A stretch of DNA of 64,000 nt from positions 32,001 through 96,000 of the forward strand of contig JAHHIK010000011.1 in assembly GCA_019358935.1 (NCBI GenBank). Direction: 5' to 3'. Source of the DNA: Tolypothrix carrinoi HA7290-LM1 (lineage in GTDB: Bacteria; Cyanobacteriota; Cyanobacteriia; Cyanobacteriales; Nostocaceae). The translations under genes and the position numbers were made by a program. How positions within the stretch are numbered: position 1 is the stretch's first letter; the number at the start of each line of letters is the position of its first letter. Under the pieces are notes generated by a model that saw nothing but the letters and a program-made list of their open reading frames with translations, searched no databases and was not told the origin of the DNA. Of this stretch, positions 15,759 to 32,229 are shown piece after piece.

Positions 15759-17136
15759 TCACACCTTGCTTAACAAACCCCTGCAAAAAACCAATTTGCT
15801 GATTTTGCACAAAGACATTTTGCAACGTTTGCCGCAATTTATCGAGATTCAAACCACCTTCAGAATTTAAGGCAATTTCCTGCTGCTCGAAATACTCGAT
15901 TAAGCTTAAACCTGCTACTCTGGTAAGATAAGCTGCACTCACACCTTGCACGACACCACCAGCAACAAAGGTGACAGCATTACTCTTGAGGACAGTGCTA
16001 ACAGCTTTCGTAGAAAGTTCTACCAAACCGAGTTTCAGCATCAAACTTCCCATTGCACCGGCTACAGTTTGCGCTTGTTCAAGGGAAAATTTCTGCTGAT
16101 AAATACCACCCAAATCGATTACCATTTGGGCATTAATTGCCGCTGTTGCCAAAATATCCAACGCTGGTACTGGGTTAGCGAATGCCGCAGCCGCAGCGAT
16201 CCACTGATATTGTTCTATTATGGGAGTTGCGCGATCGCCTCTCACCTGATTCAACAACTTCTTCGCATCAGCTTTCAGCAACTTCGCTTTTCTCATCGTA
16301 GTTGTCCACACCAGTTGTTGTTTTTGCTGTGCGACAATCTCATTTAACTGCTGCGTCAACTGCTGAATGTCTGGTGCAGGTTGTTCCATCCATTCTTGCA
16401 GGGAACCGTCTTCTTGATGCTTCCGCACCTTGATGGGCAAAGGAGACACCGCTGTTGCAACTACATTCGTCTGCATCCGCTGTTTCAACGACAGTAACAC
16501 GCTTGCGCGTTCGTCTGGTAAATACTGGTCTTGTTTGTTGAAAACCAGCATTGCAGGTTGATTTGCTGCCTTTAACTGCTGTAAACTTTTAAATTCTGAA
16601 TCTGTCAAATCACCGTTTGTCAAAAACAGAACAAAATCAGATTGATTAACTTCTGAAGTAGCAGTATCTGACTTTTCACTTGCTTCTACAAACAAAGGTG
16701 CTGTTTCGTTGAATTGTACAGATGCGAAATTTTTCCGTAGAACTTGAATTAAGGTGGTTTTACCTACCGACTTTCCACCAGTAACAGCTAGTTTAATTTC
16801 TTGTCTATCTAATTCAAAGAATAATTGATTAACTTGTTCTCGCAGCGTTTTTAAAGCTGGATGGTTTTCAGCTTCACCTGCAAGTTGGTTAATTACGACT
16901 TCAGTAAGTGCGATCGCTTCTTCTACTCTAGCCCGATTTACAGGCATTCCATCAAAGATATCAGAAGCATTTTTGCCGCGATTTGGCTTAAATAACCACA
17001 AACCACCACCAACTGCTACGAGACTCAATAAACCAAACTCTCCCACCTGCACCATTGAATGGTGCATATTTTGCAAAATCCATAGAGAAAAGGACAGTCC
17101 CAATCCTCCCACTAAAATCGGTCGCTGCAACTTCAC
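15715..17136 (-). CDS. DUF697 / GTPase-like membrane-associated protein
   Basis: GGKSVGKT P-loop, NKQD, C-terminal ANPVPALD DUF697-type region; likely GTG start at 17136 after GGAG. Confidence 0.82.
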   Translation of the reverse strand: MKLQRPILVGGLGLSFSLWILQNMHHSMVQVGEFGLLSLVAVGGGLWLFKPNRGKNASDIFDGMPVNRARVEEAIALTEVVINQLAGEAENHPALKTLREQVNQLFFELDRQEIKLAVTGGKSVGKTTLIQVLRKNFASVQFNETAPLFVEASEKSDTATSEVNQSDFVLFLTNGDLTDSEFKSLQQLKAANQPAMLVFNKQDQYLPDERASVLLSLKQRMQTNVVATAVSPLPIKVRKHQEDGSLQEWMEQPAPDIQQLTQQLNEIVAQQKQQLVWTTTMRKAKLLKADAKKLLNQVRGDRATPIIEQYQWIAAAAAFANPVPALDILATAAINAQMVIDLGGIYQQKFSLEQAQTVAGAMGSLMLKLGLVELSTKAVSTVLKSNAVTFVAGGVVQGVSAAYLTRVAGLSLIEYFEQQEIALNSEGGLNLDKLRQTLQNVFVQNQQIGFLQGFVKQGVKRLLPEAQAEAISG

Positions 17137-17348
17137 AACTATGATTCTCCGCGCTTTTTCGATCCCTTCTCCTCCAGAATAGATCAAAAATTCCCTTGGA
17201 CAAATTCCACAGGCAACTCCAGACAATCTTCTTTACTTACAAACGGCAGTAAAATTAACTCCCAAGTGTTGTGATACCGGGCTAAACGTGGTTTACCTGC
17301 CGCTTGTCAGTCTCAACAAAGTGTATTTTGGTATCATAGCTTATGAAC
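17108..17348. repeat. 241-bp direct repeat, copy A (endonuclease 3' remnant + DUF697 start)
   Basis: Matches 19126-19367. Confidence 0.95.
17182..17348 (-). pseudogene. 3' remnant of PD-(D/E)XK homing endonuclease gene
   Basis: Homologous to the C-terminal third of 19202-19684 with a 1-bp deletion; truncated at a MITE. Confidence 0.88.
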
Positions 17349-17441: not shown

Positions 17442-17557
17442 GAACCAATACGGTTCAGTTAAAACTCAAATTTAGGTAAATAAAGTATTGTTGCCAAAAA
17501 TGATAATTGAGTGTCGTGTATCTCAGGGATTTATAGCCGCTCCAAAAGGTGAGAGTC

Positions 17558-18457
17558 ATGTCAAAGACAGAGCATGAATGCTGCGCTATAGAAAAGGCAA
17601 TCTTAAAAAGCTTTAATCGTCAATCTCTACTCTCCAACGACAATTTGCTTTGGAGCGGTATCCGCTTCCAGTTCACTCATAGCAACAGCGCAAGTGCATT
17701 GCCAGAGGAGATTATCTTTCCAGAAAATGCGATTCATATTTATACAGAAATGCCGTCTGATTATGTTATTGAAGCGCGAATTAATGGACGATCGCAAAAA
17801 AGCTCGCTTGTCACGGGTCATAGTCTCATCATTCCACGCGGCACTGCTTATTGGCAATCAGACAACCACAAAAGCAAAGGCATTACTTTAGGTTTGAATT
17901 CCAGCTTTCTTGCCCGCACTCTCTCTGAATCGATTGACTTAGATTGTCTGGAACTGCAACCGCAATTTCCGACGTTTGACCCCCTCATTTATCAAATTGG
18001 GCTAGCGCTAAAAGCTGAATTAGAACAGAATCGGTATTCTAGCCGCTTATATGCAGAATCTGCCGCGACGTTTCTCGTCACCCATCTTTTCCACCATTAC
18101 GCTTGTCGCTTGACAAAAGAGCAAATCACAACAAGTGGCTTGCCTAAGTACAAATTACAACAAGTCATTGATTACATTCATGCCAACCTTGACTGTGATA
18201 TTGGCTTGACTGAATTGGCTGACTTGGCTTTGATGAGTCTCTCCCACTTCTCTCGATTATTCAAACAATCAACGGGATACTCACCCCATCAGTTTGTCAT
18301 CAAGTGCCGCGTCGAGCAAGCTCGTGAACTCCTCCTCAAAAGTGATTTGTCGATCGCGGATATCAGTTATCAAGTCGGCTTTGCCAATCAGGGGCATTTA
18401 ACCAATCATTTTAAGCGTCTGCTAGGAGTCACGCCTAAAGTCGTTCGAGAAAAATAG
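17558..18457 (+). CDS. AraC family transcriptional regulator
   Basis: C-terminal double HTH (SHFSRLFKQSTG..P, VGFANQGHLTNHFKRLLGVTP). Confidence 0.95.
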   Translation: MSKTEHECCAIEKAILKSFNRQSLLSNDNLLWSGIRFQFTHSNSASALPEEIIFPENAIHIYTEMPSDYVIEARINGRSQKSSLVTGHSLIIPRGTAYWQSDNHKSKGITLGLNSSFLARTLSESIDLDCLELQPQFPTFDPLIYQIGLALKAELEQNRYSSRLYAESAATFLVTHLFHHYACRLTKEQITTSGLPKYKLQQVIDYIHANLDCDIGLTELADLALMSLSHFSRLFKQSTGYSPHQFVIKCRVEQARELLLKSDLSIADISYQVGFANQGHLTNHFKRLLGVTPKVVREK

Positions 18458-18652: not shown

Positions 18653-19066
18653 ATGGGAATAAAATTTACCGGCGGTTGTCTGTGCGGATCTGTCCGCTAT
18701 GAATGTTCAGCCGAACCGCTTGCAATGGGCAATTGTCACTGTCGCGATTGTCAACGAGTGACAGGAAGTGCTTATGCTTCCGGACTTATGGTGCCGCAGA
18801 ATACAGTTACCATCACCGGAGATGTGAAATACTATGATGTAATTGGCGATAGTGGCAGCATTGTTGGTCGGGGCTTTTGCCCAAACTGCGGTTCCCGATT
18901 ATTTAGCAAACCCCCAAACCCTGAGCTTATGAACATTATGGCAGGGAGTCTCGATGACCCAAGCTGGTTTAGACCTGTAATGGATGTTTATACAGCCAGT
19001 GCCCAGCCGTGGGATTACATGAACCCGGATCTGCACAAATTTGCCAAGATGCCACCGATGCTTTAA
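18653..19066 (+). CDS. GFA (glutathione-dependent formaldehyde-activating / CENP-V) family protein
   Basis: GGCLCG, CHCRDCQR, FCPNCGS zinc motifs. Confidence 0.93.
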   Translation: MGIKFTGGCLCGSVRYECSAEPLAMGNCHCRDCQRVTGSAYASGLMVPQNTVTITGDVKYYDVIGDSGSIVGRGFCPNCGSRLFSKPPNPELMNIMAGSLDDPSWFRPVMDVYTASAQPWDYMNPDLHKFAKMPPML

Positions 19067-19125: not shown

Positions 19126-19367
19126 CCCACTAAAATTGGTCGCTGCAACTTCACAACTATGATTCTCCGCGCTTTTTCGATCCCTTCTCCTCCAGAATAG
19201 ATCAAAAATTCCCTTGGACAAATTCCACAGGCAACTCCAGACAATTTTCTTTACTTACAAACGGCAGTAAAATTAACTCCCAAGCATCACGATACTTAGC
19301 TGAACGTGGTTTACGCTGCCGCTTGTCTGTTTCAACAAAGTGTATTTCGCTACCATAGCTTATGAAC
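19126..19367. repeat. 241-bp direct repeat, copy B
   Basis: Matches 17108-17348. Confidence 0.95.
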
Positions 19368-19684
19368 ACATCTACCGGGAAGATATAGAACAGATCAAGT
19401 TTCTCTATATATACCAAGGCAAAATCAAAGTCGGATTTTTTGTACGCTTCTCTAACCATTAGTCGCCGATTTGTCTTGGTGCGGCGATTATCTACGACAT
19501 AATTACCTGAAGGCTGATCAAACCAGGCATATTTAACTTGGATTTTAATCAGAGTTCCTTCGACATCAAACGCCAAATCGTAAGGAAGGCGATCGCCAAC
19601 GGGCTTTAAAACTCCCCAACCACGCTTTAAGGCATGAAGAATTGCAGCTTGTTCTGCTATGTCTCCTCTTAGCTTTGTGTCCAT
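19202..19684 (-). CDS. free-standing group I intron-associated PD-(D/E)XK homing endonuclease (I-Ssp6803I-like)
   Basis: GDIAE...G..V..PVGDRLPYDL...IKIQVK pattern; about 160 aa; adjacent to intron-containing tRNA-fMet. Confidence 0.88.
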   Translation of the reverse strand: MDTKLRGDIAEQAAILHALKRGWGVLKPVGDRLPYDLAFDVEGTLIKIQVKYAWFDQPSGNYVVDNRRTKTNRRLMVREAYKKSDFDFALVYIEKLDLFYIFPVDVFISYGSEIHFVETDKRQRKPRSAKYRDAWELILLPFVSKENCLELPVEFVQGNF

Positions 19685-19715
19685 TTGTTACTTGGATATA
19701 GCTGCTAATCAGCAT

Positions 19716-19760
19716 AAAACAAAACCCTGCAACTTTTGAGTGTTACAGGGTTTTGTTTTT
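19716..19760 (-). terminator. intrinsic terminator hairpin after tRNA-fMet
   Basis: AAAACAAAACCCTG...CAGGGTTTTGTTTT stem with A/T tails. Confidence 0.75.
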
Positions 19761-19765
19761 TAAGT

Positions 19766-20086
19766 TGGTGGCGGGAAGTGGATTTGAACCACTGACCTTC
19801 GGGTTATGCTTACCATCTACAGTTTTCACTGCCTGGATTAACCAGTTTGTGGTCTGGACTGTCCCTTTACCCTCAGCTTTCCTGTTAGGGTACCTGCCTT
19901 CCAGTCTCTACACCTTCTCCATTTCTGGAGCTTGGTTCGGGATTACCGCGCTAGTGGCTTCCCCGAGTTTGACAGGTAATCATACGTAAGTTTCTTTACG
20001 TACCGCCCATAGTAAGACTAACTTTTAAGCGTTTAGTCAATCTTACTCGTTGAGCCCGACGAGCTACCAGGCTGCTCTATCCCGCG
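19766..20086 (-). tRNA. trnfM: tRNA-fMet (CAU), split: exon 1 20086-20053, exon 2 19808-19766
   Basis: Spliced 77 nt CGCGGGATAGAGCAGCCTGGTAGCTCGTCGGGCT/CATAACCCGAAGGTCAGTGGTTCAAATCCACTTCCCGCCACCA; three G-C pairs in the anticodon stem, 1:72 mismatch, encoded CCA. Confidence 0.97.
19809..20052 (-). ncRNA. group I self-splicing intron (244 nt, no ORF) between U33 and C34 of tRNA-fMet
   Basis: P1 GCU|CA:UGGGC with U-G wobble; P AAACUCGGGGAAG, Q AAUCCCGAACCAAG, R GUAGAGACUG, S AAGGGACAGUCC; terminal G. Confidence 0.95.
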
Positions 20087-20127
20087 TCGTCTTTATTTAC
20101 TATAACCCAAGCTTTTAAATTTGGCAA

Positions 20128-31992: not shown

Positions 31993-32229
31993 TTATAAAA
32001 TTTGGATAGAAGCGGTGCGTCGCTTAACTAAGTAAATGGCAAATAGCTGCTCTGAAGCCTCTGCTAACTGTAAAAGTTCACGCAAGTTTTCACTATGAGC
32101 TATTAAGCCATTTGCATTGTAAGCAACATATTGATTTTTATATAAATCTAATAACATTTGGCGGTTTTGGTTCAGCCACTTCAGCATCTCGCGGCTTTCA
32201 TTTTGGTCAGGTGTTTTACTCATACTCAT
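31993..32229 (-). CDS. DUF5678-like small protein
   Basis: WL.QNR..L...Y.NQYVAY....LIAH..NL pattern. Confidence 0.6.
   Translation of the reverse strand: MSMSKTPDQNESREMLKWLNQNRQMLLDLYKNQYVAYNANGLIAHSENLRELLQLAEASEQLFAIYLVKRRTASIQIL

Follow-up and report, generated by a model that had tools for sequence, protein, structure and literature searches.

The initiator tRNA gene (tRNA-fMet, trnfM) of the cyanobacterium Tolypothrix carrinoi HA7290-LM1 is split by a group I intron that contains no open reading frame (ORF), and behind it, on the same strand, stands an intact gene for a PD-(D/E)XK homing endonuclease of the I-Ssp6803I type. Both lie in the 64,000-nucleotide (nt) stretch of DNA analysed here, i.e., positions 32,001 to 96,000 of contig JAHHIK010000011.1 (assembly GCA_019358935.1), which we refer to as the window. 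From the anatomy of the locus and its comparison with relatives, we consider it likely, with a probability of roughly 0.7, that the locus is a dismantled mobile group I intron acting as a two-part homing unit, i.e., by trans or collaborative homing. What is new here is the intron-derived sequence in the tail of the endonuclease gene, together with a hairpin arm in the intron that aligns to endonuclease codons. The joining and parting of introns and endonucleases has so far been argued mostly from a few phage cases; about a hundred genomes of one family, with the same intron and every stage present, offer a natural series for the separation of the two. The intron fossil shows which way one step went, i.e., out of the intron, and intron loss, endonuclease decay and possible domestication become countable, and testable in culturable cyanobacteria.

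Two known systems frame this locus. I-Ssp6803I is an intron-encoded PD-(D/E)XK enzyme with a pseudo-palindromic target of 23 base pairs (bp) (PMC3384342), and the published intron of Synechocystis PCC 6803 measures 655 nt with an ORF of 150 amino acids (aa) (PMC1995217, Table 1). In phages, free-standing endonucleases work with ORF-less introns in collaborative, or trans, homing (PMC3984707). The window locus shares with the Synechocystis intron the protein family (~70% identical), the host gene, the insertion site and the intron core, but here the ORF is found downstream of the tRNA, at a distance of 81 nt and past a terminator hairpin, and not within the intron, where a 13-bp hairpin takes its place; the free-standing ORF also has a longer tail of decayed intron sequence. 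As in phage collaborative homing, a free-standing endonuclease gene adjoins an intron without a working endonuclease, the presumed target is the insertion site and the intron would confer immunity. In contrast to the phage cases, the unit resides on a bacterial chromosome, involves a tRNA gene and a PD-(D/E)XK enzyme, and is conserved across a cyanobacterial family. The direction is also apparently reversed, since the gene here would have moved out of the intron, while those of phages are read as about to enter one. We found no paper on a free-standing I-Ssp6803I homologue behind trnfM, in a literature search whose scope did not extend to the primary I-Ssp6803I papers, which may mention such homologues.

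With introns allowed, ARAGORN called the interrupted gene as tRNA-Met(cat) with a 244-nt intron (feature coordinates are given in Table 1). Read from the sequence, the tRNA shows the hallmarks of an initiator, i.e., a C1/C72 mismatch and an anticodon stem with three G-C pairs, and the 34-mer of its first exon is unchanged in 46 related loci. At default settings ARAGORN detected neither the tRNA-fMet nor the intron in the 64-kb window, and Rfam at its gathering thresholds missed both in the same stretch, so that routine annotation would list no tRNA-fMet and default tRNA and Rfam scans would overlook the genome's sole initiator tRNA gene. The trnfM exon sequences occur once in the 7.96-Mb assembly (99.65% complete), the remaining CAU-anticodon tRNAs of the genome give no match to them even at 6 or 8 mismatches, and no intron-less copy of trnfM was found in the assembly. 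Because this single initiator tRNA gene bears the intron, the 244 nt would have to splice, and the endonuclease has no intron-less target in its own genome. Four RNA-library runs yielded contigs that were considered as evidence of splicing and of endonuclease expression, and set aside. Their coverage is restricted to the tRNA and intron region, and the only clean contig in which the exons are joined without the 244 nt (X3) has a different flank and represents another organism's intron-less gene. A further contig of low depth (X2) skips 249 nt, with four other letters in between.

The intron matches the full Rfam model Intron_gpI (positions 1-253) with an E-value of 7.2e-11 in a focused search of 601 nt, at 47.1 bits, which does not reach the Rfam gathering cut-off of 50 bits. 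A consensus fold of 28 homologous introns (RNAalifold) recovered P1, P2 and the core helices with compensatory changes in 24 of the 71 predicted pairs; the U.G pair of P1 at the 5' splice site is present in 28/28 introns, and the terminal 3' base of the intron is G. No ORF of 40 aa or more was found on the intron strand, the sole listed ORF being a mechanical one of 78 aa on the opposite strand. A 13-bp hairpin with a covarying stem separates the 5' strand of P1 from the internal guide sequence and stands at the very spot that the ORF occupies in composite introns, i.e., introns with the endonuclease ORF inside. The P1 pairing of the guide sequence was taken from the RNAalifold alignment, and the P10 pairing was read from the sequence by eye. 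The loop motif of the hairpin, CGCTT, is invariant in 28/28 introns (alignment A1, columns 28-35; window ~20026-20033), and its flanking A's are kept in at least 90% of them, while the surrounding stem varies and covaries. In alignments CGCTT falls on the endonuclease codons for A-W, and such a conserved loop within a presumed remnant of ORF deletion could possibly reflect a tertiary contact.

The endonuclease matches PF11645 with an E-value of 1.5e-55 (187.4 bits against a cut-off of 26.1 bits), residues 1-137 aligning to profile positions 1-137 of 138, and PDB entry 2OST with an E-value of 6.9e-68 over residues 2-141. It is 71-72% identical to Synechocystis-like intron ORFs. Residues E11, D36, Q49 and K51, in which we take the E, D and Q-x-K to be the catalytic motif of I-Ssp6803I-type enzymes, are shared by 17 of 18 aligned sequences, the window ORF included, and the exception is a degenerate copy (L048). 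Unlike the intron-encoded type of its family, the ORF is not inside the group I intron, and every endonuclease gene of the window's taxonomic family whose position was checked against the intron (43 loci and several genomes) lies downstream of the tRNA. The original prediction, made from the letters alone, had described a 244-nt ORF-less intron between U33 and C34, a 13-bp hairpin in its P1 loop at 20011-20047 and a complete PD-(D/E)XK gene about 80 bp after the CCA on the same strand; all of these were borne out, as was the PF11645 match it proposed to check. The group I model it also proposed was matched in full, at a score that stayed below the gathering cut-off.

The order of the locus, i.e., asparaginase II, trnfM, terminator hairpin, endonuclease (where present) and a 503-aa gene, is conserved across the family, and the terminator hairpin also follows trnfM in endonuclease-free genomes. 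In one such empty site (L075) the terminator is fused directly to TTTGATCTATTCT, which in the window is the sequence following the last codons and stop of the ORF. The cassette therefore consists of a leader of ~30 nt and the ORF, with its right end in the 5' strand of P4. The sequence AGCGCGGAGAATC after the stop codon was considered as an additional piece of intron and rejected as host flank, because it also follows the terminator in endonuclease-free genomes such as L075. A resemblance between 'GCTGATT' of the cassette and the exon end plus intron start 'GCT/CGATT' (slash, splice site) of two composite introns was too short to count.

Table 1. Features of the trnfM locus and related elements, in window coordinates
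Feature	Position	Strand	Description and basis
tRNA-fMet 5' exon (exon 1)	20053..20086	-	34 nt, 3' end is U33; ARAGORN and sequence reading
ORF-less group I intron	19809..20052	-	244 nt, between U33 and C34; Rfam RF00028, ARAGORN, covariation in 28 homologues
13-bp hairpin extending P1	20011..20047	-	20047-20035 paired with 20023-20011; fold -14.1 kcal/mol, z -3.6
Internal guide sequence UAUGGGC	20005..20011	-	UGGGC with exon/intron GCU/CA forms P1 (U.G at splice site); UAUG with 3' exon CAUA forms P10
tRNA-fMet 3' exon (exon 2)	19766..19808	-	43 nt, first base C34 (CAU anticodon), CCA encoded
18-bp terminator-like hairpin and U tract	19716..19759	-	between tRNA and endonuclease gene; fold -25.8 kcal/mol, z -7.0
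Endonuclease cassette leader	19685..19715	-	~30 nt; left edge inferred from empty site L075
Free-standing I-Ssp6803I-type PD-(D/E)XK homing endonuclease gene	19202..19684	-	160 aa, intact; starts 81 nt past CCA
Intron fossil in ORF 3' end	19209..19285	-	aligns to P1-hairpin 3' arm, guide sequence, P2, P3 and P4 5' strand
Candidate sigma-70-like promoter 5' of trnfM	20099..20127	-	TTGCCA, 17 nt, TATAGT; consensus scan, 10/12 matches, pattern match only
Second, dead copy of endonuclease 3' end	17108..17348	-	242-bp direct repeat of 19126-19367

The association between gene and intron was surveyed in 389 species genomes of the window's family, searched with the protein, the intron and the 29-nt intron-less junction, and cross-tabulated from hand-transcribed genome lists. 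A strong intron match was present in 99 genomes and the intron-less junction in 279; none had both, and 11 had neither, several of these being incomplete or at contig edges. An endonuclease of near full length, defined by an alignment that starts at residue 1 and reaches residue 134 or beyond, was found in 69 genomes (no stop in 55, and one stop in 14, either in the variable tail or truncating the domain). All 69 bear the intron, compared with 0 among the 279 intron-less genomes. Partial matches only were found in at least 38 genomes, i.e., at least 17 with the intron, at least 20 intron-less ones from 8 genera, and one at a contig edge; these remnant counts are lower bounds, as there were 56 weaker protein matches beyond the matches listed. 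Another 13 intron-bearing genomes had no endonuclease among the matches listed, and a small C-terminal remnant was seen in four of ten examined.

All four intron-less loci that were examined in full carry disabled copies: one has lost the region from D36 to Q49 (L048), one retains a piece of residues 1-23 and a C-terminal piece of residues 93-160 (L051), and two retain only the first 20 residues (L052) or residues 1-103 (L055). States of intron and endonuclease are mixed within single genera, including the window's own. Intact genes occur together with the intron, and the only loci seen to have lost the intron are those with a dead gene, which is the pattern predicted for an enzyme that cuts intron-less trnfM. 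A cut in the anticodon region of intron-less trnfM, with the intron-bearing allele immune, would fit this pattern. The original prediction had named intact orthologues beside an intron-less trnfM as evidence against a chromosomal collaborative-homing unit, and a survey of co-occurrence as a check; at the level of sequence, the family survey supports that interpretation. Two side observations concern the remaining intron states. Four nearly complete genomes of one genus (G048-G051) have neither the intron nor the intron-less junction at up to one mismatch, and their initiator tRNA gene may be divergent or hold another insertion. Furthermore, the intron search of 63 family genomes recovered nothing beyond 60-100 nt of similarity to the trnfM intron core, which presumably stems from a different group I intron.

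Scanning a single genome for each species gave 52 related loci from other species, and in 43 of these an ORF-less intron of 242-245 nt is combined with an endonuclease gene 3' of the tRNA, with the ORF intact in 33 and broken in 10. The gap between tRNA and endonuclease is mostly 52-95 nt, and in the few loci where it reaches 200-1,190 nt (L012, L032, L033, L038) the spacer appears to have received secondary insertions. Three loci combine an intron-less trnfM with a degenerate ORF or fragment only. The other six have the ORF inside an intron of 648-713 nt, all six being intact, and belong to Patescibacteria, a deltaproteobacterium and a gammaproteobacterium. A phylum sample of 401 genomes added seven loci outside the window's family, i.e., one free-standing gene (L070) and six composite introns of 624-655 nt, of which three are Synechocystis-like and two have a broken frame (L069, L072); one Synechocystis-like intron (L068) has 655 nt and an ORF of 150 aa, the same sizes as in the published Synechocystis intron. 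The intact endonucleases of the composite introns L035, L037, L039, L045, L046 and L049 are 60-76% identical to cyanobacterial ones, and the occurrence of such cyanobacterial-like composite introns in Patescibacteria and proteobacteria therefore points to a transfer of the element across phyla.

Homing endonucleases reportedly pass through a cycle of invasion, decay and loss, known as the Goddard-Burt cycle. Here a single family displays the intact gene with intron, the broken gene with intron, the intron alone, the intron-less trnfM with an endonuclease remnant, and the empty site. Unlike a composite intron, which leaves no trace when it is precisely lost, the present arrangement lets endonuclease remnants outlast the intron and record its loss, because the gene lies outside it.

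The original prediction left open whether the pair is a precursor of the composite intron or derived from it, and the 3' end of the gene favours the latter and speaks against the former. The last ~80-90 nt of the window ORF align locally to intron positions ~20-95 with a score of 39, compared with 22.4 +/- 2.9 (maximum 33) in 300 shuffles. When a profile of 49 trnfM-plus-intron genes was searched with nhmmer against the 1,500 nt behind each tRNA, matches were found in 27 of the 49 (best E-value 1.2e-6), always collinear and always at the 3' end of the ORF, and a reversed-sequence control gave 0. Composite introns show where such an overlap could arise. In those with a full-length frame (10/12) the ORF begins in the P1 loop, 9-32 nt past the 5' splice site; in 8/12 (L037, L039, L045, L046, L049, L067, L068, L071) it stops just before P3, and its final codons therefore overlap with the guide sequence and P2. 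In L035 the ORF continues through P3 and P4, with CCTGTCAAACTCGGGGAAGCC translated as PVKLGEA, and the tails of free-standing genes, e.g., SPVQLGEAGF (LPVEFVQGNF in the window), align with this read-through in both protein and DNA.

The same relationship is visible from the side of the intron. The loop and 3' arm of the hairpin in the ORF-less intron correspond in alignment to the endonuclease codons for A-W-E-L-I-L, which fall within the part that matches Pfam (residues 1-137) and include the invariant residues A134, W135 and I138. The hairpin would therefore be what an ORF deletion left behind. In its P2 part the fossil resembles the Nostocales intron more than it does other composite introns. 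As ribozyme core sequence has no reason to stand at the end of a stand-alone gene, the gene was probably once resident in an intron of the same lineage. The pair is thus most likely a derivative, i.e., a dismantled composite intron, and not a precursor.

Intact copies of the gene are ancient, have mostly been passed on with the locus, and experience strong purifying selection. Across 30 loci with intact genes, the median ratio of nonsynonymous to synonymous divergence (dN/dS) of the endonuclease is 0.083 at a median synonymous divergence (dS) of 0.77, compared with 0.073 and 0.85 in the adjacent asparaginase II gene, and the dS of the endonuclease tracks that of its neighbour (rho 0.69, median ratio 0.96). 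A gene in neutral decay since its fixation would not show so low a dN/dS at a dS of 0.77. In a few locus pairs the dS of the endonuclease is far from the neighbour's, in both directions, which hints at exchange. Ongoing homing between close relatives or a benefit to the host would each fit this pattern of selection.

Under the preferred reading, the ancestor was most likely a composite tRNA-fMet intron of the Synechocystis type, with an ORF reaching from the P1 loop to the guide sequence and P2. In the lineage of the window genome, the stretch that runs approximately from the ORF leader to the 5' strand of P4 would have been copied to a place behind the tRNA terminator; loss of the ORF from the intron would have come later, with the 13-bp P1 hairpin as its residue. 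Expression of the endonuclease is probably low and, as our guess, depends on transcripts that read through the terminator. By splitting the 23-bp target in the anticodon region, the intron should render the host allele immune, judging from the published I-Ssp6803I. The enzyme would cut intron-less trnfM on other chromosome copies, on incoming DNA or in relatives, and repair from the intron-bearing allele would copy the intron into the cut allele, the endonuclease gene being co-copied because it lies only ~125 bp from the insertion site.

A number of observations weigh against this account. The surveyed genomes are kin, so that the split of 69 to 0 overstates the number of independent events, and the tracking of dS looks mostly vertical, with little sign of recent horizontal homing between genera. 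The route of expression is brought into question by the strong terminator hairpin that separates the tRNA from the endonuclease gene, and a simple consensus scan of the ~30-nt leader revealed no promoter-like site. As for the fossil, the nhmmer E-value of the window's own copy is weak (0.046) and the 49 loci are related, making their matches non-independent. The 21-mer spanning P3 and P4 is degenerate (5-10 mismatches) and, taken alone, only weakly above chance, with at most 7 mismatches in 20/49 loci compared with 63/980 shuffles. In two free-standing loci outside the family (L036, L070) the alignment shows no clear fossil, and the protein tree, weakly resolved and effectively unrooted with the row of the paralogue L054 left out, gives no direction.

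The last two of these points leave some room for the opposite order of events, the route proposed for phage collaborative homing, in which the free-standing endonuclease is ancestral, pre-adapted to the insertion site and not yet inside an ORF-less intron: the tree forces no direction and L036 and L070 have no evident fossil. We regard this order as improbable, since the tail of the free-standing ORF shares homology with parts of the ribozyme core (guide sequence, P2, P3 and 5' P4), and the match between the intron's hairpin arm and the conserved codons for A-W-E-L-I-L speaks for a deleted ORF. Still further from the evidence is the view that the window gene is an inert relic, a leftover without present activity that has not yet decayed. 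Although no target remains in the own genome after fixation of the intron, and decayed copies occur in many relatives, the window ORF is full length and retains E11, D36, Q49 and K51, and a group dN/dS of 0.083 over a dS of 0.77 is beyond what neutral drift would produce; we hold this view to be very improbable.

Selection itself could be explained if the nuclease no longer homes and has been kept for the benefit of the host, either for retention of the intron across chromosome copies or for cutting foreign DNA with an intron-less initiator tRNA gene. Its dN/dS is as low as that of the neighbouring housekeeping gene, the similar and tracking dS values speak for long-term, largely vertical persistence, and the locus is syntenic across the family. 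On the other hand, 10 of 43 loci are broken, at least 38 remnant-only genomes and 13 intron-only genomes (by the matches listed) occur among the 389, and 279 of the 389 manage without the endonuclease. Such a pattern of loss and breakage is that of a cycling selfish element and not of an essential host gene, and we know of no host phenotype for the endonuclease, so domestication seems unlikely, if somewhat less so than an ancestral free-standing gene. A related and similarly doubtful proposal is that the escaped nuclease destroys any DNA with an intron-less initiator tRNA gene, as an addiction or defence module, and that the ~90-nt homology lets the ORF re-enter the intron by ectopic gene conversion. 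If so, the nuclease would have ceased to be purely selfish, its targets would be chromosome copies and phage or transforming DNA, and purifying selection on it, at the level of a housekeeping gene, would have been kept since the genera diverged.

Other sequences related to the endonuclease occur in the same genome. The two copies of the direct repeat listed last in Table 1 consist of the endonuclease 3' end and its flank, are ~92% identical, and are near-perfect over the last ~170 nt. They bracket a segment of ~2 kb with a gene for an AraC-family regulator (17549-18457) and a GFA-family gene (18653-19066), and the same second endonuclease fragment is found in another genome of the genus (G113). 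The repeat and the ~2-kb segment look like an insertion with duplication of its junction. A second PF11645 member of the genome (L054, contig C50, ORF 1495-2151) has 218 aa with a C-terminal extension, scores 75.5 bits and stands 65 nt behind an intron-less tRNA-Arg(UCU) gene (1355-1429) on the same strand. Similar paralogues of 205-244 aa, ~31-39% identical over residues 3-103 or 3-110, are present in many genomes of the family, and L054 may be another free-standing nuclease linked to a tRNA gene.

With introns allowed, ARAGORN also proposed further split tRNAs elsewhere in the genome (e.g., C18:56035-56358, C12:86637-87151 and C61:41399-41914), its proposals including an Arg(CCU) with a 247-nt insert and a Trp with 420 nt. 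These proposals may be a mixture of genuine group I introns and artefacts.

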